This document shows, in pieces, positions 11,468-23,041 of a DNA stretch of 28,076 bases (within the stretch, counting starts at the first letter, position 1; each line of letters opens with the position of its first letter). Both the position numbers and the translations under genes were made by a program. The notes under the pieces were generated by a model. It worked only from the letters and a program-made list of their open reading frames with translations, ran no database searches and had not been told where the DNA came from. This DNA comes from a virus (taxonomy: Duplodnaviria; Caudoviricetes): IMG/VR virus record IMGVR_UViG_3300050004_000004, positions 1 through 28,076 of that record; one strand, written 5' to 3'.

Positions 11468-11832
11468 GACGCCTTCTCCATTCGCTCGAAAAGCCTGCTG
11501 AGCAATCGCATGAGCTCACGGTTGGCGCGCAGCAGCCCGGGGCGCACGATGGCGTATTGACCGCTGTTGGCCACTTCCAGCCAGATGCCGTACGACACCG
11601 AGTGGCTAAGTATCATCATCCAGGAATTGCGGTCCAGCTCGTCAACGGTGGCGAACAAGCCGTTGCGTGCATTCGTGGTGCGGTCCGTCCAGCGCGCGTT
11701 GGTGCGCATCCACGTTTCGCTCCTAGCCGCCTGGTAGTCCATGGTGGCCTTGATGCCTCGTCGGGCACGGGAGTCAAATTTCTTCAGGTTGTGATCAAGC
11801 TTGTCCAGATTGATCACGAATGAATTAGACAA
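11464..11832 (-). CDS. Neck / tail-completion protein (HK97 gp10-like), 122 aa
   Basis: TTG start with GGAGG SD; ARWTDRTTNARNGL, HSVSYGIWLE and YAIVRP motifs. Confidence 0.8.
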   Translation of the reverse strand: MSNSFVINLDKLDHNLKKFDSRARRGIKATMDYQAARSETWMRTNARWTDRTTNARNGLFATVDELDRNSWMMILSHSVSYGIWLEVANSGQYAIVRPGLLRANRELMRLLSRLFERMEKAS

Positions 11833-13108
11833 TGGAACCCCTCCGCCCGTAGCTCATGACGAGGCCCTTGCGCTCGTACCCGTTGTACGGGATCACTGCG
11901 TCCACGACGTACTTCTGGCCGTTGACGTCGTACCAGTAGTCGTTTTCCTGGATGACCGAGTCCCAGTTGCCGAGCAACGTCAGGTCATACTTGCGTTGTA
12001 CGCCACCACTTCCGAAGCCTGCGCCCGACGTGGATTGCACGGGGCGTTCCGTGTGCGCCATCGGGATCAACCGGAAGCGCTGCACCGTGCGGGCAGCGCC
12101 ATCTACGAGCGTTACCGCACCCGATGGTGTTCTAGCCTCTGTCTGCGGAATGAGAGCCAGGTCAACAGGGCTGGCCTCGATGAAGGCCATGGTGTTGAGC
12201 CGCTGCATGCGCAGTTCCATGCTGGCAGTGATGCCCGTTCCCCCAACGGCTTTCGGTAGCGTCCCGGCCAACGTGGCCGTGACCGTGGTTTGTTCGCCAG
12301 CGGTGAAGCTGGCCGTAGCGCGCGGCAAAGTACCCTCGAGGGACGCTGTGCCCGCAGGGTCGGCCTGAGCGGCCAGCACGGCCCGAGGCAGCGTGCCCGC
12401 TAGGTCGGCTACGGCCAAGACCCCCGCAGTAGCCGCCACGGTGGCTTTCGGTAGGGTCCCGGCCAGCGTGGCGGTTTCTGGGCCACCCGGCAGGTCGGGA
12501 CCAGCAACCCAGTCAACCGCCGTGCTGCCCGCGCTCAGGTGGCGTGCGTTGCCGCTGATGTCGTTCAGGTTATCGATGAGCGGCCAGTCTGCCCACGCTG
12601 CGAGTACCCCAGTGGGGGAAGCCCATTCCGCTTCGATTTCAGCCTGCGTCAGCTCACCGCTCAGTACGCGCCAGTACGCCAGGGACCCCAACAGGTTCTC
12701 GCTAGAATCCCCGGTATCCCGCCCACCCAACGTGATGCCGCCCGGGGTGTTCGTGCTCACCGTCCCCGAATCAACTTCCACCGAACCGAGGGGCGTTGCC
12801 GCGTACACCTTGCCCGTCGTGCCGAGGCATGTGATGGCCACTCGACGCCATTCCCCAACAACGAAGTTGGTGGAGCTGGACACCGAGCCGCCCCCGGTGA
12901 AGTAGTTCGGCCCGCTGGTGCCGTCGCTACCCGTGCCGAAGGTGACCACGGTTCCGAAAACCGCTGTCCAGACGCGAGCCAACACCGAGAACGTATTCGT
13001 ATCCGTGTCAACACGAGCCCAGCCCAGAACCGTGAGACCACTGGCAGGGTCGGGCAAAGCTCCGGATCGGCTGACCCGGTCTGTTGCTTGTCCGAACTGC
13101 GCTGCCAC
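11825..13108 (-). CDS. LamG/concanavalin-like domain + 4 repeats + head-tail stopper-like domain fusion, 427 aa
   Basis: Likely start GTG 13108 after AGGAGG. LamG pattern (LTVLGWARV, GEWRRVAIT, ITLGG, GSLAYWRV..LTQAEI); the C-terminal ~130 aa (QRFRLIP, YDLTLLG.WD..I..NDYW, YVVDAV) occupies the stopper slot. Confidence 0.75.
   Translation of the reverse strand: MAAQFGQATDRVSRSGALPDPASGLTVLGWARVDTDTNTFSVLARVWTAVFGTVVTFGTGSDGTSGPNYFTGGGSVSSSTNFVVGEWRRVAITCLGTTGKVYAATPLGSVEVDSGTVSTNTPGGITLGGRDTGDSSENLLGSLAYWRVLSGELTQAEIEAEWASPTGVLAAWADWPLIDNLNDISGNARHLSAGSTAVDWVAGPDLPGGPETATLAGTLPKATVAATAGVLAVADLAGTLPRAVLAAQADPAGTASLEGTLPRATASFTAGEQTTVTATLAGTLPKAVGGTGITASMELRMQRLNTMAFIEASPVDLALIPQTEARTPSGAVTLVDGAARTVQRFRLIPMAHTERPVQSTSGAGFGSGGVQRKYDLTLLGNWDSVIQENDYWYDVNGQKYVVDAVIPYNGYERKGLVMSYGRRGSIV
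12239..12478 (-). repeat. Four in-frame 21-23 aa repeats A-x-L-(A/E)-G-T-L-P-(K/R)-A
   Basis: ATLAGTLPKAT, ADLAGTLPRAV, ASLEGTLPRAT and ATLAGTLPKAV seen in the translation. Confidence 0.9.
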
Positions 13109-13116
13109 TGTTCCTC

Positions 13117-13533
13117 CTAGGCGGGCTGCGTGAAGGTGCCAGCGGTCAGGTTGACGTCGAGGCCCACGCTGACCGTGGTGGTGCTCATCTCGATGTCCTC
13201 GCCACTTCCGTCCGCACCAACCGATCCGTCGATGACCGTGTTGCCGTCGGAGTCCGCGCCACGCCACCAGGTAGCCGTTCCGGCGGCCACGCCCTCGGCG
13301 GCCAGCGGTAGACCCGCGACCGCCATGCTGCCCGCGCTCGGCGCACCGAAGCCGGTTGTGGCCAATGTGAACGTGAGAAGCAACGTGTTGCCCCCGCCCA
13401 CTGCGGTGTTCGCGTTGACTGGCCGCGTGCCGCTGTACACCTTGATGGTCCCGCCAGCCGCGCCTAGGTCGAAACGCGCGGCGAGCGAGCTCAGCTGCGC
13501 GTTCTGTGTGGCCGTTGCGTACCCGAGCGTCAT
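13117..13533 (-). CDS. 138-aa Gly/Ala/Thr-rich virion structural protein (fibre/appendage subunit-like)
   Basis: AAGGA SD; IKVYSGTRP, GTATWWR, IDGSVG and C-terminal TFTQPA motifs of a widespread phage all-beta family (recognised from memory). Confidence 0.7.
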   Translation of the reverse strand: MTLGYATATQNAQLSSLAARFDLGAAGGTIKVYSGTRPVNANTAVGGGNTLLLTFTLATTGFGAPSAGSMAVAGLPLAAEGVAAGTATWWRGADSDGNTVIDGSVGADGSGEDIEMSTTTVSVGLDVNLTAGTFTQPA

Positions 13534-14416: not shown

Positions 14417-15706
14417 TCACGGCTCCTCGTCGTACTCGGTGGGCTGCGTGTAGGTGCCCGATGCCGTGAGCTGGAGCACCGCACCCGCGCCACGCTTACG
14501 GATGCCGCTGCCGATGCCGCGACCGTAGTAGGCCTCGGTGAGCGGGTAGTCCGGCCGACGACCCTGGATCAGCCGCAGCCCCCGCAGTGCGGGGTTCGCG
14601 TGCTGCCGCAGCCCGACAGGGTTGTTGACGGACTCCTGGCCGCCCGTAGCGAAGGCCACGAGGTACTTCGGTGGGATGTAGTCCTCCTGAATGATCGTGA
14701 ACTCGCCGTACCGGCCGATGACCTCCATGCCAGCGATGTTCGCCGGGGGAGCCTGCTGTCCGGCGGGCAGCACGTAGTCACGCGGGACCAGGAAGGCCGG
14801 AGTGCCTTGCGCGGGAATGAAGTCCCACTTGGCCGTTCCGCCGTTCTGCACGGACTTGAACGTGCGGATGATGTCGCCCTGTTCCTTGTTGACCATCAGG
14901 ATCAGGTTGTACCCGTTGGAGCCCTTGTACCCGTGCTCGGTGAGCTTGAGCTCGAGGCCGTCGAGGTCGCCGCTGTCCACGGTGGTCGAACCGGACGTGT
15001 AGTAGTGCGTGTGCGTACCGGCGAAGGTGTTCGTGCGGTACGTCGGCGGGACCTGCCCGTCGTTGTTCCAGAACGCGTAGACGTTGTACGGCTTCTTGCG
15101 GATGACCGCCTCGCGGTTCGCCGGGTTGAACAGCGTCCACATGACCAGCTGGAACATCAGGATGCTGTCGGCCTCGAGCGCCTGCGTGTTGATGGCGTCG
15201 ACCTGTGCGGCTGGCGCGTCCGCGAGGAATTCCCACGTGAAGCGCGCACCGAGGTCGTACCAGTTGAAGTCGTATCCGAAGAACTCGATTTCACCGGCGG
15301 GGCGGTACGAGCGCGGCTTGCCGTACTCGGACGCACGCTCGAAACGCGCGTCGCTGTCGGCAGTGGCGATGCCCTCGACCGCGTCCGTGACGAACCAGCT
15401 GAGGAAGTTGATGAGCGGCTCCCGCTCACGGTTCCGCAGCGCGACCGCCTGCTGATAGGCGGACCACAGTTCGTTGGTGTCGACACCGTCGATGGTCTGC
15501 TCGATGACGTCGGCGGCTTCGTTGAAGCCCTGGTCGCCACCACCGAGAGCCAGTGCCAGCCCCAGCTTCTTGTAGAAGCTGCGCGCCAACACGTTCCGAG
15601 TGATGGTGCCGTCCGGCGACACGGTCGGCGCAGTGGACCAGGTGCCCCACGGAAGGATGATCCGCTGGTCGCGAACCAGGATCGATGACTTCTTCACGTT
15701 GATCAC
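14417..15706 (-). CDS. Major capsid protein, 429 aa, with a ~56-aa N-terminal leader
   Basis: Position, size, very high GC3; FERASEYGKP, YDLGARFTWEF and C-terminal RGIGSGIRKRGAGAVLQ; GTGA overlap with the upstream gene. Confidence 0.9.
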   Translation of the reverse strand: MINVKKSSILVRDQRIILPWGTWSTAPTVSPDGTITRNVLARSFYKKLGLALALGGGDQGFNEAADVIEQTIDGVDTNELWSAYQQAVALRNREREPLINFLSWFVTDAVEGIATADSDARFERASEYGKPRSYRPAGEIEFFGYDFNWYDLGARFTWEFLADAPAAQVDAINTQALEADSILMFQLVMWTLFNPANREAVIRKKPYNVYAFWNNDGQVPPTYRTNTFAGTHTHYYTSGSTTVDSGDLDGLELKLTEHGYKGSNGYNLILMVNKEQGDIIRTFKSVQNGGTAKWDFIPAQGTPAFLVPRDYVLPAGQQAPPANIAGMEVIGRYGEFTIIQEDYIPPKYLVAFATGGQESVNNPVGLRQHANPALRGLRLIQGRRPDYPLTEAYYGRGIGSGIRKRGAGAVLQLTASGTYTQPTEYDEEP

Positions 15707-16104
15707 GCCCCTGCCGTAGTGGACTGGGCGAAGCGCACGACCAGGCGGTCGATCTCGACCATGTGCCCGACGTACACGTTGTTCGTTGCGGTCAGGGTCA
15801 TGGTGCCTGCCGCCGTTGTGCCCAGCGCGTACACGTTGAGCCCCGCCCCGAGAGTACCCGCCACGTCGTCGTCCACGACGTCCAGGATCTCGCCTGCCGT
15901 CATGACGTCGATGGGGTGGCCTGCCTTGCGCGCGATACCGAGAGCAACGACGCCCTTCAGGCCGGACGATCCGGCCGGGTTGCCCTTGATGATCCGCCCG
16001 TTGGCGTTGAGGCTGACCGCGATGATCTTCCCGACGTCAGCGTCGAGCCAATCCGCGTTCAGCTTGGCCCGAAAGCCAATGTGAACCTGATCGAACCTTG
16101 CCAC
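15703..16104 (-). CDS. Capsid decoration/cement protein, 133 aa
   Basis: Between scaffold and capsid; GAAAGGA SD; small Gly-rich beta protein (AVSLNANGRIIKG, IDVMTAGEI). Confidence 0.7.
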   Translation of the reverse strand: MARFDQVHIGFRAKLNADWLDADVGKIIAVSLNANGRIIKGNPAGSSGLKGVVALGIARKAGHPIDVMTAGEILDVVDDDVAGTLGAGLNVYALGTTAAGTMTLTATNNVYVGHMVEIDRLVVRFAQSTTAGA

Positions 16105-16118
16105 GGTGGCAGTCCTTT

Positions 16119-16943
16119 CTACCTGTTCTTCCCGAGGGCCGGAAACCGCTTGATGAGCTCTTCATCCGAGAGCTGGCCTTTTGGCTTCGTGCCCTTGCCG
16201 TTGTTCTTGGCACTCCCGACGCCGGAACCGCTGGCACCGCGACGAGGGGGCTTCTTGTCGCCTTCCTCTTCGTCGTCACCGTCCTTTCCGGCATTCACGA
16301 GATACTTGTTGGCCTTCGCCAACGCCTTCACGACGTCGCGGATTCCCTCCACGTTGCCGTCCTCGTCGATCTCCAGGTCCTTGAGGTCGTCAGCCGCTGC
16401 CCGCTGCGCCACCTTGGGATTGTGCCACGCAATCTTCTCCTGCGCACTGGCGGTGAGGAATGCGTTGACCATGGCCACGTTCCTGAACTTTGTCTGGAGC
16501 GTGTCCCTTTCCTTGGTGGCGGTCTCGAGGTCCTTGCGAAGGTTCTCGAGCTCGGGCTTGTCCTTGCGCTCCTTCTCGTCCTTTTCTTTCTGGAGCGCGG
16601 CTGCCGTTTTCTCGGCCTCCGACCGCCGCTTGTCCGCAGCGCTCAGCCTGCGGGTAACAGCGTCGAATTCCTCCCTGGAAACGGGACCGGACTTCTTGCG
16701 CTTGCCATTGTTGCCCGCGTCGTCACCGTCGTTGTCGTCGGTGTCCTGCGCGTCATCATCGGCTTCGCCGTCGTCGTCATCCCCGCCCTCGTCGTCCGCA
16801 CCATCATCTTCCCCGTCGCCCCCGAGGAGCGGCCACACTGGAAGACCGTTGGCACGCAGGCCAACAGCCCGGAGCGGGGTACGCGTACCGGGGTAACAGA
16901 GAAGCGGGTGGAGCGGCATAGGGTCGACGAGATTCACCTTCAC
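16119..16943 (-). CDS. Scaffolding protein, 274 aa, with a 42-aa N-terminal leader
   Basis: GTG 16943 after AGGAGG; Asp-rich tract, coiled coil, KYLV motif, C-terminal ELIKRFPAL helix. Confidence 0.85.
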   Translation of the reverse strand: MKVNLVDPMPLHPLLCYPGTRTPLRAVGLRANGLPVWPLLGGDGEDDGADDEGGDDDDGEADDDAQDTDDNDGDDAGNNGKRKKSGPVSREEFDAVTRRLSAADKRRSEAEKTAAALQKEKDEKERKDKPELENLRKDLETATKERDTLQTKFRNVAMVNAFLTASAQEKIAWHNPKVAQRAAADDLKDLEIDEDGNVEGIRDVVKALAKANKYLVNAGKDGDDEEEGDKKPPRRGASGSGVGSAKNNGKGTKPKGQLSDEELIKRFPALGKNR

Positions 16944-17038
16944 GATTCCTCCTGGTTTTCGGTGTGCACTGTCACCGTGGATACGTGCGCGCAGGCACGT
17001 GGGCCTCACTGTAGCCGCCGAGAGGCATTCGGGGAAAG

Positions 17039-17956
17039 CTAGGCCACTTGGCTGGGCTTGGCCTGTCCGTATTCATCAATCAATCCGTCGAGGTAATCCG
17101 GATTGGAAACCAGGTCTAGGAAATCATCCTCGTCCATCATTTCGTTTGTCGTGAAACACAGACACTGCGGATGGGGCTTCCGGGGGAGGTCACTTGGAAC
17201 GTACAGACCGGGTCCTTTGCCCTCGCTGTGCCCTACCGCGTAGGCATCGCACTTGTCCGGTGTGGTGTGGCTGCGGGACAGGTTCCAGCGCAGTGCGGTC
17301 ACAAACGGGTTGATCTCCGCACTGGCCTTCTGCGTGGTGTGGAAGGCGTTGTTGAGCTCGGTGCGGGCTAGCCGCTTGGCCGCGTAGCTGACACCGCCCT
17401 TTGTGTTCGGATCAATCATGGGCTTCACGTCCTTGGCAATGTCCTGCCAGCTGCCGCCCTGCAGAATGACCCGGTTCACCGCTCGGTCAACAAACCCGTC
17501 CGCGAGCTGCCTAGTTCGGTACACCCGTTGAGAAAGTCCGATGCCATTCTGGCCTCGGGCGAGGTATGTGGCAACAGTTCGTCGAGCGTAGGCTCGCTGG
17601 GCTGAAACAAGCGCTTCACTGTCTCGGGCTCCCGTTGCCCGAAAAAGGATTCGCTGGAGAACAGCTTCGGCCTCGGCGGCTGCATCTGCGACAGCATTTC
17701 CAGCACTTCGAATACGCTTTCCGACATTCCGCCATAGTTCACTTGACACACCGCGCAGTTCCCTTCTGATAATGGCCAGCTGAGCACGGCGTACCACGGC
17801 TCCGATGCCGTGCCGAGACTCCAGTTTGTTGATGCGCCGTTGTGCGTCCGCCATGGCGTCCCGCAGGTCGTCAACGATGGCCACCTCGGCTACGCGCTCC
17901 CCGCGCAGGTACAGCGTCAGCGGATTGGCCCCGGGGCCAGTAAACGGGTTCGTCAC
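17039..17956 (-). CDS. MuF/SPP1-gp7-like minor head protein, 305 aa
   Basis: Directly after the portal; RLARTELNNA, SHxxxDKCD and PHPQCLC motifs; basic composition. Confidence 0.85.
   Translation of the reverse strand: MTNPFTGPGANPLTLYLRGERVAEVAIVDDLRDAMADAQRRINKLESRHGIGAVVRRAQLAIIRRELRGVSSELWRNVGKRIRSAGNAVADAAAEAEAVLQRILFRATGARDSEALVSAQRAYARRTVATYLARGQNGIGLSQRVYRTRQLADGFVDRAVNRVILQGGSWQDIAKDVKPMIDPNTKGGVSYAAKRLARTELNNAFHTTQKASAEINPFVTALRWNLSRSHTTPDKCDAYAVGHSEGKGPGLYVPSDLPRKPHPQCLCFTTNEMMDEDDFLDLVSNPDYLDGLIDEYGQAKPSQVA
17476..17751 (-). CDS. Candidate overprinted +1-frame gene inside MuF (91 aa from GTG 17751, or 83 aa from ATG 17727)
   Basis: Open +1 frame coinciding with a sharp GC3 drop in the MuF frame; SD-like AGAAGGGA 8 nt before the GTG. 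Confidence 0.45.
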   Translation of the reverse strand: MCQVNYGGMSESVFEVLEMLSQMQPPRPKLFSSESFFGQREPETVKRLFQPSEPTLDELLPHTSPEARMASDFLNGCTELGSSRTGLLTER

Positions 17957-19524
17957 ACTGGCACATCCTCGTCGGCGTCGTCTTCAGCGCCTTCCTCCTC
18001 GCGCCGGGAATCCGCCTCGGCGTCATCCTGCTCTGCATTCAGGTTCGCGAATTGCTCCGTTTCCTGAATGATGAGCTGTAGCTCGTTGTCCTCCATTTCG
18101 TACCCGGCTTCCCGCAGCAGGCGCAGGCTTGTCTGGAGGCTGATCAGTGGGGGCGTTGCCATCCGCATTGTCATGATGTCGTCCAGCAGTTGCTTGCGGT
18201 TGACCGGGATCTTGTTTCCGATGGTGGGCTGCACCACGACGGCAGGGGTGGTCACACCGCCTTCGCCCGTCATCAGCAATGGCAGCTCTTCGTACACCGT
18301 CAACCAGAAACACAGGTCGTGGAACATCTGCGCGTGCACATCTATAATGTGCTGATCTTTCGGCTTGGTGTGCGCGATCATCGGGGCCAGCTGCAAGGCC
18401 AGTGCGATGCCGGATTCCGCCGTGGCACTGTCTACCTTGCCGATGGCTGCGTCGCTGGCCCCTAGCGCGCTGCGTACCGCGTCAACGAGCCGCGTGTAGT
18501 GGTCGCCGTAGGCAGCCAGACTCGTCGCCCCAGTGATGCGCCTGAGCCCCGGAGCCTGCGTGAGAACGCGCCCTGGCCCCATGATCCAGTCGACCTCGTT
18601 GCCCGCCTCGTCGCGCGGTGCCCCGCCATCGCTGGCGTACACCCCGATGCCCTCGATGGCGAGCGTAAGGTCCTCATCGCTGATGGTTTGGTTGATGCCT
18701 AGCAACGCGGACTCCAGCCCCCGCAGTTCACTTGAGCCGAACGGGGCTGTTGGGTCGATGTTCTTCAGGTGGTACACCGGAATCGCCGGTATCTCGGCGG
18801 GCAGCGGTTCCGGGCTGAGGATCACGCTGAACGGACTTGCCGCCGTACCCGCCCACTCGTCCGGCTTGTGCAGCGCGTGGCTTCGGATGATCTCTACCTG
18901 GTTGCCCGCCTCATCGAAAACGCGCTCGTACGTCATACGGCTGACGTATTCCTGCTTGTTCACTGTGATCGGTTCGGCCAGGTGCACGCGGACGATCTTG
19001 TCCGGGTCCCCGCCCTCGACCACATCCGCTTCGTACACGGGGAAGTAGGCTGCCGGGTCCACTGCCATGATCTTGATGCGCCGCCCGATTGGCTTGGCGT
19101 CGTCCGCGATGATGTGCCACAGCCAGTCGCCTCGGTAGAGGCCCTTCAGCTTGTTGCTGCTGAACTTGCTGAGGAACTGCTCTCGTGTGAACAGTGCCTC
19201 GAAGGCAAGCTGGGCAATCTGCACGGGGCCGCTGGCCGCCGTGTCGCCAGGCTCCGCACCGGGGGCCGTGATGGTGTAGTTGAAGTCCGGTGCGGTGTAC
19301 CGGTCCACGGCATTGATGAGCGTGCGCGCGGTCGGCATGAAGATGGGGTTGTCATTGTCGCCCCGCATTACCTCCAGGAAGCCCTCTTCGGACGACCAGT
19401 AGATCTCCTCGTACTTGCCGTACGCCTGAATGCGGATCTTGTCCGCCTCCGGCACCCATCCCGGTGCCTGGCCCAACCAGGGCTCGATGGTGGACCACTG
19501 CGTGAACACCGTAGGCGAAGTCAT
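17953..19524 (-). CDS. Portal protein, 523 aa
   Basis: Size and position; FGSSELRGLE and AESGIALALQLAP motifs; acidic C-terminal tail. Confidence 0.92.
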   Translation of the reverse strand: MTSPTVFTQWSTIEPWLGQAPGWVPEADKIRIQAYGKYEEIYWSSEEGFLEVMRGDNDNPIFMPTARTLINAVDRYTAPDFNYTITAPGAEPGDTAASGPVQIAQLAFEALFTREQFLSKFSSNKLKGLYRGDWLWHIIADDAKPIGRRIKIMAVDPAAYFPVYEADVVEGGDPDKIVRVHLAEPITVNKQEYVSRMTYERVFDEAGNQVEIIRSHALHKPDEWAGTAASPFSVILSPEPLPAEIPAIPVYHLKNIDPTAPFGSSELRGLESALLGINQTISDEDLTLAIEGIGVYASDGGAPRDEAGNEVDWIMGPGRVLTQAPGLRRITGATSLAAYGDHYTRLVDAVRSALGASDAAIGKVDSATAESGIALALQLAPMIAHTKPKDQHIIDVHAQMFHDLCFWLTVYEELPLLMTGEGGVTTPAVVVQPTIGNKIPVNRKQLLDDIMTMRMATPPLISLQTSLRLLREAGYEMEDNELQLIIQETEQFANLNAEQDDAEADSRREEEGAEDDADEDVPV

Positions 19525-19880
19525 CAGTTCTCCATTTCGTATTCGTAGACGCCATTCTCAGTTGCGACGAAGAACCGCATTCCTGGCAACATGTACTTCT
19601 TGTCCGTGTCGGACGGTCCGTCGGGGCCGTGTGGGTGGGTGTGCCATATCCCGAAGATGGCCTCCTCATCCTGCATGGCCACTGCCTGCCATTCCGGGTC
19701 CATTTGCCAGCTATGTTCGGGTCTCTTGGAAACGTTCGGCACGTCGAACACGAACTGATCGGTGTCGGGATCCGCACTGTTCATTATGAACCCACAGACC
19801 TCGCGGGGATGGGCGCGAAGCGCGCGCTTCATCAGGGCTTGCTTCACGGCCTCGCTCATTGCGTGCTTTGCCAGGGTCAT
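19524..19880 (-). CDS. JAB/MPN+ (JAMM, Mov34/Prok-JAB) metalloprotease, 118 aa
   Basis: PREVCG catalytic Glu plus exact HxH-x7-S-x2-D (HTHPHGPDGPSDTD); overlaps both terL (ATGA) and portal (TGATG). Confidence 0.92.
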   Translation of the reverse strand: MTLAKHAMSEAVKQALMKRALRAHPREVCGFIMNSADPDTDQFVFDVPNVSKRPEHSWQMDPEWQAVAMQDEEAIFGIWHTHPHGPDGPSDTDKKYMLPGMRFFVATENGVYEYEMEN

Positions 19881-21319
19881 CGTGCGCTCCTTGCCCTTCT
19901 GCGCGGTGTCACCGAGCGTGGTCCGCGTGTGTGCCTGGTGTTGCGAATGACGGGCGGCATCAATGCCTTCTCGCCGAAATGCCCCCTGAAGAAACGGCCG
20001 AGCGCTTCGGGCGCGTGGTCATCCTTCTTCATCGGCTCTTCTTTGGCGTTAGCCGATTCCTCGTCCTTCGTCTTCGGGTAGCGATACGCCTCCATTTCCG
20101 AAATCAACATCTTGCATTTCGGATTGACCAGCAGGCGCGGTCGCCGGTCCGGGTGGTCGTAGTCCAGGTGCTCGTTCTCGTCCTTGAGCCATTTGCGAAT
20201 AAGCTCGAGACGTACCTTGATCTCGCCACCCGTGTCGCCCATGGTTTGCAGGCGTAGCTTCTCGGCCAGTGTGTGGCTGGCTGCGGGGTCGGCAGGGTCG
20301 GGGTAGAGCCGAGTAGCCACCCGCGTCAGCGACGCGTGTGCGGCCGACTGAGCGTTGTTCTGAAGGTCGTACGCCACCTCTTCGGGGCTGCGGTGATTCT
20401 GGTAGTACTCGTCAATGACGTGCACGTGGTCCCACGGGTCCACCTGAATGAACAGCACCACCGAAGGGTTCGTCCAGCCGTAGTCCGTGGCAAGGAATAC
20501 TGGCCATGCCGGGTTGTATTCCGCGAGGTGGCTATCGACGTGCCATTCCTCGTCCCAGTCCTTGAATACCTGCCCGACGTACTTGCCGAACTTCGCTAGG
20601 ACTTCCTGTGCCCCCATTTCCTCGGACATGCCTCGCAGCATAGAGAGGATCTCAGGGTCATCCTTGCCCAGCGGGAATACTCTCTCATTAGCGTAAGACG
20701 GAAAGCGAAAGCTTTCCCACTCCGGATCAGTACCGTGCTGACCCACGCCCCATAGGTCATAGAACCAGTTCCTTCCCTCTGGCGTGGAATTGAACTTGCC
20801 CCACCCGCGAAAGTCCGCCAGCGTCGGGCGGATGTACTGGTCCCAGATGCGCCGCTTCATCTTGGCGGCCTCGGCCATGATCACACCGGAAAGGCCCTCA
20901 CCGACCAGGTTCTCCGGATACTTGGCGGACTGCGCCTTCAGCAGGAAACGGCCACCCCATAGCGACACCTGCATGTCGCCGCCACGCGAGTCGTAATAGG
21001 TACCAGGCTTGTCGAACGGCATCTGCAATGCCTTGGCCTTGTTATGGAAGGCACGGAACTCTTTCTCCGAGTCGGTATACTGCGGACCCGTGATCCAGTA
21101 CTCGTGACGGATACCCAGCTCGGCCAGGTGGTCCTTCTGCATGTACGCCCGATAGCACTCGGGAATGAGCTCCATGCCTCCCGCCGTGGACTTGCCGGTA
21201 CGACGACCAGCGGCGACCACTTGGAACCGTGCGCGGGACGCGTGAATGCGACGTTGTGCCTTGTTCGGCACATAGCCGATTTTCGCCCACGTCTGATTCT
21301 TAGCGATCACCAATGCCAC
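19877..21319 (-). CDS. terL: Terminase large subunit, 480 aa
   Basis: Q motif (NKAQ), Walker A AGRRTGKST, variant Walker B VIMAE, C-motif STP, nuclease motifs TDYGWTNP, DPAD and DDHAPEA; AGGAG SD. Confidence 0.95.
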   Translation of the reverse strand: MALVIAKNQTWAKIGYVPNKAQRRIHASRARFQVVAAGRRTGKSTAGGMELIPECYRAYMQKDHLAELGIRHEYWITGPQYTDSEKEFRAFHNKAKALQMPFDKPGTYYDSRGGDMQVSLWGGRFLLKAQSAKYPENLVGEGLSGVIMAEAAKMKRRIWDQYIRPTLADFRGWGKFNSTPEGRNWFYDLWGVGQHGTDPEWESFRFPSYANERVFPLGKDDPEILSMLRGMSEEMGAQEVLAKFGKYVGQVFKDWDEEWHVDSHLAEYNPAWPVFLATDYGWTNPSVVLFIQVDPWDHVHVIDEYYQNHRSPEEVAYDLQNNAQSAAHASLTRVATRLYPDPADPAASHTLAEKLRLQTMGDTGGEIKVRLELIRKWLKDENEHLDYDHPDRRPRLLVNPKCKMLISEMEAYRYPKTKDEESANAKEEPMKKDDHAPEALGRFFRGHFGEKALMPPVIRNTRHTRGPRSVTPRRRARSAR

Positions 21320-22015: not shown

Positions 22016-22271
22016 CGCTCCCCTCCGGTATTAGCTTCCTGATTTGGGTCAACCATTCCCCGGTCGGTCCAGGCCATTCCGGCATGATGCGGCGCACGGT
22101 CATCACCATGCTGATCGCGATGAGCCGCCACTGCTCCGGGTCCTGTTCTTCCTTGGCGCGCCTGATGAGTGGCGGCAAGGTGGTGCGCAACAGCCGCCGT
22201 TGATCCCCTGACGCGTCGTGCAGGGCCGCGCCGAAGTACAACACGAACGCTGCGCTTCCACCAATGCTCAT
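21987..22271 (-). CDS. Hypothetical protein, 94 aa
   Basis: ATGA-coupled to the upstream gene; helical composition. Confidence 0.65.
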   Translation of the reverse strand: MSIGGSAAFVLYFGAALHDASGDQRRLLRTTLPPLIRRAKEEQDPEQWRLIAISMVMTVRRIMPEWPGPTGEWLTQIRKLIPEGSDAFQVGKTT

Positions 22272-23041
22272 TGTGAACGCCTTCGGCGTCGGCTGCGGGA
22301 GGGCTGGGGAGGTTCGTCGTCATCGTCTTCGGACAGTTCGAATTCCCCCTCCACGACCATGCCGCCCTCAATGCGTGCGCGCCCTGCGTTTACCTGGTCA
22401 TCGCTCACCTCGGCCACAATGCCGTCTAGAACGGTCTGCCACGGCTTGTCACCGCTGACCATGAGCCGCTCCGGCACCTTGCCCTCAATGCGCTCAACGA
22501 CCGCCTGAGCCGCCCGCAGGCGTTCACCTGGCGTGGCGAGCTGACCCACTGGGCCTCGGCCGCAGGCAATGTCGGTCATCGCCTTGATGGCTTCGGTGTA
22601 GCTGCCCAACCACAGCTCCTGACCGCGCGTCATCAGCTCGTGTAAGCACGCCTGCTGGAACTCGCGCGGCACCCACTTCGGGGGTCTACCACGGAAGCCG
22701 CCTGCCGAGTCGCGCAACCGACCGCGCACCAGCTCTTCTACGCTGAGGCCCTGCACGAACTCGGCCATGGTCATTCCGGTGTCCTTCAAGATCCTCTCCA
22801 TTCTGACCCATGCCCTGCTCATGCGCACTTTCCCTTTCAGGACCGTGCGTTGCCTTTCCGTCAACAGGTGGTGCGTCTGTGTGGGTACGCGAAAGCGCTG
22901 ACGCAGTACGCCAGCGCGTTCGATTGTTGTTCCGCCCCGCTCATCCCCGTTGTCCAGGAATTCAATCACCGGGGTCAGCGGGTCCTTCTTCCTGCGCCTC
23001 TCCCGATGACGAGCCGCCTGGCTCTTCACTACCTTCGGCAT
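22268..23041 (-). CDS. Putative terminase small subunit, 257 aa
   Basis: AAGGAGG SD; EELVRGRLRD..G.FRGRPP and RLRAAQ.VVERIEGK.PE resemble actinophage TerS-position proteins; upstream of terL. Confidence 0.6.
   Translation of the reverse strand: MPKVVKSQAARHRERRRKKDPLTPVIEFLDNGDERGGTTIERAGVLRQRFRVPTQTHHLLTERQRTVLKGKVRMSRAWVRMERILKDTGMTMAEFVQGLSVEELVRGRLRDSAGGFRGRPPKWVPREFQQACLHELMTRGQELWLGSYTEAIKAMTDIACGRGPVGQLATPGERLRAAQAVVERIEGKVPERLMVSGDKPWQTVLDGIVAEVSDDQVNAGRARIEGGMVVEGEFELSEDDDDEPPQPSRSRRRRRSQ

Follow-up and report, generated by a model that had tools for sequence, protein, structure and literature searches.

What trims the head-protein precursors of a tailed phage whose head module holds no recognizable prohead protease? 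The question is raised by a 28,076-nucleotide stretch of viral DNA (Duplodnaviria; Caudoviricetes; positions 1 to 28,076 of IMG/VR record IMGVR_UViG_3300050004_000004), here called the window, which makes up 43% of a linear virus record and carries head and tail genes on its minus strand. A gene for a JAB/MPN+ metalloprotease of the JAMM type, referred to below as JAB, lies between the genes for the terminase large subunit (terL) and the portal protein, and the precursors of both the scaffolding protein and the major capsid protein begin with a leader that ends in glycines. The original prediction, made from the window alone, proposed that this JAB removes both leaders and that it does so specifically after Gly-Gly. 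Our analysis suggests that the phage JAB probably does cut the scaffold and capsid leaders off during head assembly, through a junction motif that differs from phage to phage.

Scaffold and major capsid protein carry leaders ending in glycine

The scaffold leader ends in VWPLLGG, with G41-G42 at positions 16818-16823, and the acidic body of the protein starts at D43 (LLGG/D; the slash marks the junction). The capsid leader ends in G55-G57 at positions 15536-15544 (LGGG/D), and database homology of this protein begins only at residue 53-60. The original prediction had placed both junctions at these positions, and the placements hold. Measured against L011 (L and G numbers are labels of the compared records and genomes), the capsid leader differs by 10 synonymous and 7 nonsynonymous codon changes and the scaffold leader by 12 and 8, and sequence comparison indicates that both leaders are coding and conserved at the protein level in the three closest contigs. 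Translation of the capsid protein from a downstream start was rejected because its leader is conserved as protein in close relatives and no start codon is conserved at the junction.

The pattern hydrophobic-x-G-G-[D/E] occurs four times among the 8,200 residues of 28 window open reading frames (in the two leaders, the portal and the tape measure protein), and LGG occurs eight times. The motif alone is weak evidence; its weight comes from its position at both junctions and from the family data given below. A comparison of the leader with the PDB returned chance matches driven by repeats and one weak match to a phage capsid, 9lw6, and the best score in the ESM Atlas, 0.85, was uninformative. The scaffold-type leader shows a weak resemblance to the start of a solved phage capsid precursor of 543 residues (PDB 9lw6-9lw8) and to a gene annotated as tape measure protein in prophi79-1 (MW584153.1 16079-16162).

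Leaders are lost after Gly-Gly in the relative Patience

Phage Patience encodes a JAB, gp19, in its head module and carries PIFGG/T in both its scaffold (gp21) and its capsid protein (gp23). When gp21 was analyzed by mass spectrometry, the peptides nearest its N-terminus started at residue 35, after Gly (11 peptides, plus one that retained the Gly), an end that the authors could not explain (Pope et al. 2014, PMC4324244). G34-T35 is the sole Gly-Thr near the N-terminus of gp21. The electron cryomicroscopy (cryo-EM) model of the Patience capsid begins at T20, directly after GG, with the end of the N-arm lying between two helices (Podgorski et al. 2025, PMC11965321), and the model of the Adjutor capsid begins at N28, two residues past LSG-H (PMC11965321). 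These two published data sets support the removal of the scaffold and capsid leaders right after Gly-Gly in Patience, where the ends are precise and the same motif is present on both proteins. No spectra of gp19 were recorded from particles and 11 were recorded late in infection (PMC4324244); the accessible portions of PMC4324244 and PMC11965321 do not link gp19 to the trimmed N-termini.

Three details weigh against this interpretation of the Patience data. A missing N-terminus in a cryo-EM model can reflect disorder, the supplement of the 2014 paper numbers the gp21 site 56 rather than 35, and that paper placed the capsid cleavage at 82/83 (PMC4324244). We discarded the site at 82/83, which is contradicted by the cryo-EM model and explained by trypsin spacing (a tryptic peptide of 74 residues). 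The 17-residue tryptic peptide that spans the GG site of the Patience capsid protein does not appear among the peptides in the accessible part of PMC4324244.

The head module encodes an apparently intact JAMM protease

The window JAB matches PF14464 above the Pfam cut-off and contains the JAMM zinc site, a Glu followed by HxH-x7-S-x2-D, with no NlpC/P60 domain. Residues E27, H80, H82, S90 and D93 do not vary in an alignment of 18 phage JABs, nor in any of 40 aligned rows. Its nearest solved relatives are the stand-alone JAMMs 2kks and 2kcq and JAMM1 (5lda/5ld9), with sequence matches at E values of 1e-16 to 1e-12. The overlaps that couple the gene to its neighbors on both sides can be read in the sequence, as the original prediction had stated. 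That prediction was also right that no other prohead protease is recognizable: no S78, ClpP or Prp match was found in the 30 window open reading frames scanned, in two of two complete close relatives or in Patience. Searched by profile, PF04586 (S78) matched 0 of 4 Patience-like records and did match the positive control Zirinka, PF00574 (ClpP) matched 0 of 4 such records and nothing in the window, and PF04327 (Prp) was absent from 5 of 5 records. The earlier statement that no ubiquitin-like gene is visible extends to relatives, with no ThiS- or lambda-I-family gene in the 4 and 5 phage records tested.

In relatives, the JAB gene is annotated as "metalloprotease," "protease" or "tail protein" (PHROG and RefSeq copies). 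In Beckerton, Damien, Cborch11 and Megatron06 it goes under the name "major capsid protein"; this name and the "tail protein" of the RefSeq copies look like annotation errors. For phage Nova, a "JAB/MPN domain protein" is merely listed in the accessible text of PMC10893344. Two genes annotated as hypothetical, Ajin gp3 (L002:706-1221) and Wollypog gp79 (L019:4607-5560), encode divergent JABs and lie upstream of the terminase small-subunit gene (terS); in the Wollypog protein, a long insertion separates the Glu from the HxH motif. Ajin and Wollypog were therefore dropped as JAB-less controls. The JAB tree is mostly unresolved, and we draw no claim about donors from it.

The junction differs between phages and matches within each phage

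Across 31 JAB-bearing phages, what stays constant at the junction is a Gly; two positions before it, the residue is mostly hydrophobic or Pro. A second Gly follows this invariant one in only 7 of the 31 scaffolds and 13 of the 31 capsid proteins, its place being taken elsewhere by Ala, Ser, Arg, His, Phe, Asn or Gln. The strict GG specificity of the original prediction therefore fails, and the three scaffolds closest to that of the window themselves read GA at the junction. The conserved element is hydrophobic-x-Gly only, and GG is not conserved. Together with the lack of a ThiS- or lambda-I-family gene, this appears to set the system apart from JAMM enzymes that cut after the C-terminal Gly-Gly of a ubiquitin-like domain. 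Taking the register from Patience places the cut one residue past the invariant Gly, which corresponds to D43 and D58 in the window; a cut directly after the invariant Gly, with later trimming, may give the same ends.

With registers set by eye and kinship left out of the statistic, the scaffold-capsid junction match scored 9.48 within a phage and -0.82 +/- 1.27 between phages (31 phages, p < 5e-5). About half of the identical junction residues in these phages are encoded by different codons. Phages grown on M. smegmatis have differing motifs, each matched between scaffold and capsid protein, and such different matched motifs on one host fit a specificity encoded by the phage. Two observations in this set count against a single Gly-Gly rule or against the role of JAB: the GA of the closest scaffolds, already mentioned, and the JAB-bearing L094, which has no Gly in its scaffold junction.

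JAB and glycine leaders occur together

Our viral scans kept 3/3, 80/220, 10/10, 80/397 and 80/413 loci, and 50 plus 48 longer records were then searched whole for JAB. The near-complete set comprised 43 genomes: Ajin, Wollypog and 41 IMG/VR records with a completeness of 90% or more. With leader classes set by eye and with JAB status known, 30 of these genomes combined JAB with a Gly leader on each of the two proteins, 1 had JAB without such leaders, 3 had both leaders without JAB, and 9 had neither (Fisher p 3.6e-6). Four of the last nine were leaderless, three had other leader types and two were mixed; all four of the fully leaderless complete genomes lacked JAB. At a completeness of at least 84%, classified by scaffold leader and leaving L257 out, the corresponding numbers were 30 with JAB and leader, 1 with JAB only, 4 with the leader only and 14 with neither.

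The co-occurrence that the original prediction had proposed to test is thus present in the raw counts and loses significance when the tree is considered. On the capsid tree each trait changed 6-7 times, and the 3-5 independent pairs on supported branches gave a sign test median p of 0.25-0.5, although almost none of these pairs ran in the opposite direction. Other results, too, count against a role for the phage JAB. The leader classes were not assigned blind to JAB, as noted above; L032 (93% complete), L066 (94%) and L212 (100%, with terminal repeats), or 3 of the 12 JAB-negative near-complete genomes, carry Gly leaders on both proteins; and two further JAB-negative near-complete relatives carry a Gly leader on the capsid protein only. 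A wider JAB profile found no JAB in the 12 JAB-negative records that were rescanned, a set to which L212 did not belong.

Two other shared leader types were noticed among the compared records. One, approximately [YF]DLRxAF, is present on both proteins in L034, L040, L044, L045, L048, L070, L084, L204 and L226, in which no JAB was found. Another, GD[IV]xGLxxxxRxxFG..M, is present on both proteins in L086, L185, L183 and L207 and on the scaffold only in L042, L056, L069, L089 and L101, some of these with a leaderless or Gly-leader capsid protein; no JAB was found in either group. The capsid gene of L257 is frameshifted in its contig, probably through an assembly error, and its leader reads PIFGG/T.

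The leaders could instead be assembly or folding elements that are trimmed by general host proteases or mostly left uncut, while JAB serves some other purpose, for instance the removal of host ubiquitin-like tags from virion proteins; bacterial ubiquitin-like defense systems exist, and JAB would then act in counter-defense. We consider this improbable. The precise ends in Patience and the identical motif on its two proteins do not favor it, and a counter-defense job predicts no link with leader class, yet the leaderless genomes and those with other leader types lack JAB. It draws on the position of the scaffold Gly, which lies at the edge of a Gly/Asp-rich linker, on some relatives in which JAB is located a long way from the head module, and on staphylococcal phage 80alpha, which, by the accessible text of PMC5744158, requires its scaffold leader and not the cleavage of it, being viable with uncleavable capsid and scaffold proteins. 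By analogy, leader cleavage may be dispensable in the window phage as well, a further point against a necessary role for JAB.

The same leader occurs in phages without JAB

Homologs of the window scaffold leader form the N-termini of scaffold or delta-domain proteins in 91 records of phages that belong to other head families; a query with the Zirinka leader returned 133 records. Phages and prophages that carry this leader family without a JAB come from Gordonia, Mycobacterium, Tsukamurella and Streptomyces. No JAB was found in any of the six tested (IdentityCrisis, Zirinka, Eyre, Nesbitt, prophi91-4 and ClubL), all of whose leaders end in GG; Zirinka has an S78 protease. The presence of the same leader in six unrelated JAB-less phages shows that the leader can exist independently of a phage JAB, and the breadth of the family and these six phages add to the case against our interpretation. 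What stands of the claim that the phage JAB removes both leaders is the loss of leaders after GG in Patience and the position of JAB as the best candidate; the six phages, together with the three JAB-negative relatives, leave room for cleavage that is independent of it.

The leaders might therefore be removed by an enzyme of the host, with the actinobacterial JAB Mec as the foremost candidate, much as Prp acts in 80alpha; the phage JAB would then be a backup or have another role. Mec processes the ubiquitin-like protein CysO and cleaves CysO adducts. A JAB gene adjoins a CysO-like gene ending in LPAVAGG in two host genomes, and a Mec-like gene was detected at an E value of 1e-20 in 68 of 201 sampled Actinomycetota genomes (including the unpublished G166, G186 and G244). 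In comparisons that were post hoc and ignored kinship, the capsid leader ended in GG in 9 of 9 JAB-negative relatives versus the 13 of 31 JAB-positive ones (p 0.002), and likeness to the LPAVAGG C-terminus averaged 8.6 in JAB-negative versus 1.0 in JAB-positive relatives (p 0.02). However, this explanation leaves unexplained the matched motifs specific to each phage, the non-GG junctions of JAB-bearing phages and the absence of JAB from all four leaderless complete genomes. Mec-like genes are also patchy, with no match at that cut-off in 133 of the 201 genomes and none in G050, and we found no documented leader removal in a JAB-less phage in the literature. We therefore regard removal by a host enzyme as unlikely, though it is the strongest of the competing explanations. 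Our literature search, which did not extend to subscription journals, found no relevant paper on Mec or CysO with phage.

A broader scheme, which we put forward tentatively, would join the two enzymes: widespread actinophage head-protein leaders could mimic the C-terminal strand of bacterial ubiquitin-like proteins and be removed by JAMMs, by host Mec in strict-GG temperate phages and by the phage JAB in Patience-like phages, with enzyme and motif drifting together. Candidate host proteins bearing the leader, as L27 does for Prp, were dismissed: matches appeared in 2 of 201 genomes, at low sensitivity (39 candidates scored per genome), and the one examined was a prophage scaffold. In L300 (Nocardioides), the CysO-like gene runs four residues (ALPA) beyond Gly-Gly, such that its product would itself need JAB processing.

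Other phage proteins do not track the leaders

The pattern might also be accounted for by another phage protein, either the MuF-like protein or a papain-like enzyme, or by a tail-tip role of JAB as in lambda K; this is very improbable. MuF-like genes are labeled "capsid maturation protease" in Ajin and by PHROG, and PHROG calls the JAB family "tail protein." However, the "head maturation protease" label that PHROG gives the window MuF-like gene covers only positions 19-301 of an 856-position profile, and MuF is present in the leaderless L049, L075, L079 and L173 and was not detected in the leader-bearing, JAB-positive Suzy, L085 and L167. MuF was rejected as the protease on these grounds, since its presence does not track leaders. 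A Peptidase_C1 (papain-family) gene is present at L131:17106-17825, in L164 and at L083:3620-4369, in the last case between terS and terL; the Pfam scan for a replacement enzyme covered 143 open reading frames from three JAB-negative records, based on a crude gene call. Such a gene is thus present in two JAB-negative relatives, but these are only 2 of 12 JAB-negative records, and the third carrier, L083, is leaderless; as a replacement enzyme it fails for the same reason as MuF. Against a tail-tip role for JAB stands the lack of lambda-I and ThiS-family genes in the complete relatives tested.

A working model for leader removal

We propose that JAB would be made late, with the packaging genes, and would bind the last strand of each leader as a mimic of the C-terminal strand of a ubiquitin-like protein. 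Cutting at the Gly junction would give a mature scaffold predicted to start at D43 and a mature capsid protein predicted to start at D58, would free the acidic scaffold body and the capsid N-arm, and JAB would leave the particle afterwards. The JAB of each phage would set its own motif, consisting of the invariant Gly, a hydrophobic residue two before it, and then Gly, Ala or Ser, sometimes Arg, His or Phe.

If this model is correct, a JAMM zinc enzyme would be an added class of tailed-phage head protease; to our knowledge, the known ones are serine or cysteine enzymes. No paper proposing JAB as a tailed-phage head protease was found in the literature outside subscription journals. The model would also assign a role to the JAB gene, which in dozens of cultured phages bears no label other than "metalloprotease," "tail protein" or even "major capsid protein," and it would explain the 2014 start of Patience gp21 after Gly together with the 2025 cryo-EM N-terminus. 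Should the extension to host Mec hold as well, the Prp/CP-1 pair would have a counterpart among metalloproteases, convergent with adenovirus maturation, and a host sulfur-carrier protease would act as a phage assembly factor. The JAB-less members of the leader family raise the question of whether many temperate actinophages borrow a host JAB.

Layout of the head module

On the minus strand, the genes run terS, terL, JAB, portal, MuF-like, scaffold, minor capsid and major capsid. From residue 58-60 onward, the window major capsid protein has matches in 161 records of cultured phages (of Mycobacterium, Gordonia, Microbacterium and others), and among solved capsids it matches 8giu (Patience) at an E value of 1e-91 and 8saj (Adjutor) at 3e-79. 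Homology to Patience gp23 and Adjutor gp17, with a minor capsid gene adjacent, identifies the window phage, on its sequence, as a Patience-like actinobacteriophage. The run of head-tail connector genes is interrupted at 11825-13533 by a laminin-G/concanavalin-like gene (PF13385) and by a gene for a virion structural protein.

Table 1. Head-module genes and predicted leaders in the window
Feature	Position	Strand	Basis and remarks
Terminase small subunit	22268..23041	-	phrog_10899 E 4.5e-13
Terminase large subunit	19877..21319	-	phrog_2 E 7.9e-36; stop overlaps JAB start (ATGA)
Stand-alone JAB/MPN+ (JAMM) metalloprotease, 118 residues	19524..19880	-	Pfam Prok-JAB PF14464 E 2.6e-14
Portal	17953..19524	-	phrog_64 E 7.3e-23; start overlaps JAB stop (TGATG)
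MuF-like head morphogenesis protein, no recognizable protease	17039..17956	-	PF04233 weak; PHROG head morphogenesis matches
Scaffolding protein precursor, 274 residues from GTG 16943	16119..16943	-	PF06810 E 7.3e-12; AGGAGG upstream
Scaffold leader, residues 1-42, hairpin-type motif, end WPLLGG	16818..16943	-	Predicted cut after G42 (or G41)
Minor capsid (cement) protein, without leader	15703..16104	-	PF09956 weak; minor capsid annotation at the same place in relatives
Major capsid protein precursor, Patience-like HK97 fold	14417..15706	-	phrog_3990 E 7.8e-112; PDB 8giu, 8saj
Capsid leader, residues 1-57 (start may be codon 4), end LALGGG	15536..15706	-	Predicted mature start D58 (or G57); D58 in register with Patience T20

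Comparison with known systems

A functional parallel is phage 80alpha, whose capsid and scaffold leaders are processed by host Prp (C108), with the phage CP-1 protease in the same clan (accessible text of PMC5744158 and PMC9405229). As in that system, an N-terminal leader motif is common to scaffold and capsid protein, both in the window and in the co-variation across 31 phages, and there is no HK97-type protease; the loss of the leader from the mature proteins is supported by published data in Patience and is predicted for the window phage. Whereas Prp is a cysteine protease with an F/A site, the candidate here is a JAMM zinc enzyme with a Gly-based site and a motif that varies by phage.

A second parallel is adenain (C5; related to the core proteases of poxviruses and African swine fever virus), a deubiquitinase-like maturase of viral capsid precursors that cuts at (M/I/L)XGG-X and (M/I/L)XGX-G (accessible text of PMC7464072 and PMC10318531). 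The junctions LLGG/D, LGGG/D and, in Patience, IFGG/T fit (M/I/L)XGG-X, and many relatives do not. Adenain has a papain-like cysteine fold, belongs to eukaryotic viruses of another lineage and uses DNA and peptide cofactors, in contrast to the JAMM candidate; the sequences are unrelated, and the likeness is one of convergence.

Among JAMM enzymes, the window protein resembles the stand-alone prokaryotic JAMM/MPN+ proteins (JAMM1, Mec and PF14464) in its E-x-HxH-x7-S-x2-D site and its length of about 120 residues. Unlike them, it is encoded by a phage with no ubiquitin-like gene, and its likely substrates are linear leaders in which the residue after the invariant Gly varies. With the lambda tail-tip protein K (JAB-NlpC) it shares the presence of a JAB domain in a phage structural operon, but it has no NlpC domain, lies in a head rather than a tail module and is not accompanied by a gene of the family of the ubiquitin-like lambda I. 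A further close system is the Patience-like head module (clusters of Patience, Adjutor, Papyrus, Suzy, Zany, Ajin and Wollypog), which has the same capsid, minor capsid, scaffold, portal and JAB genes and from which the window differs in the location of JAB between terL and portal and in its longer leaders (42 and 54-57 residues).

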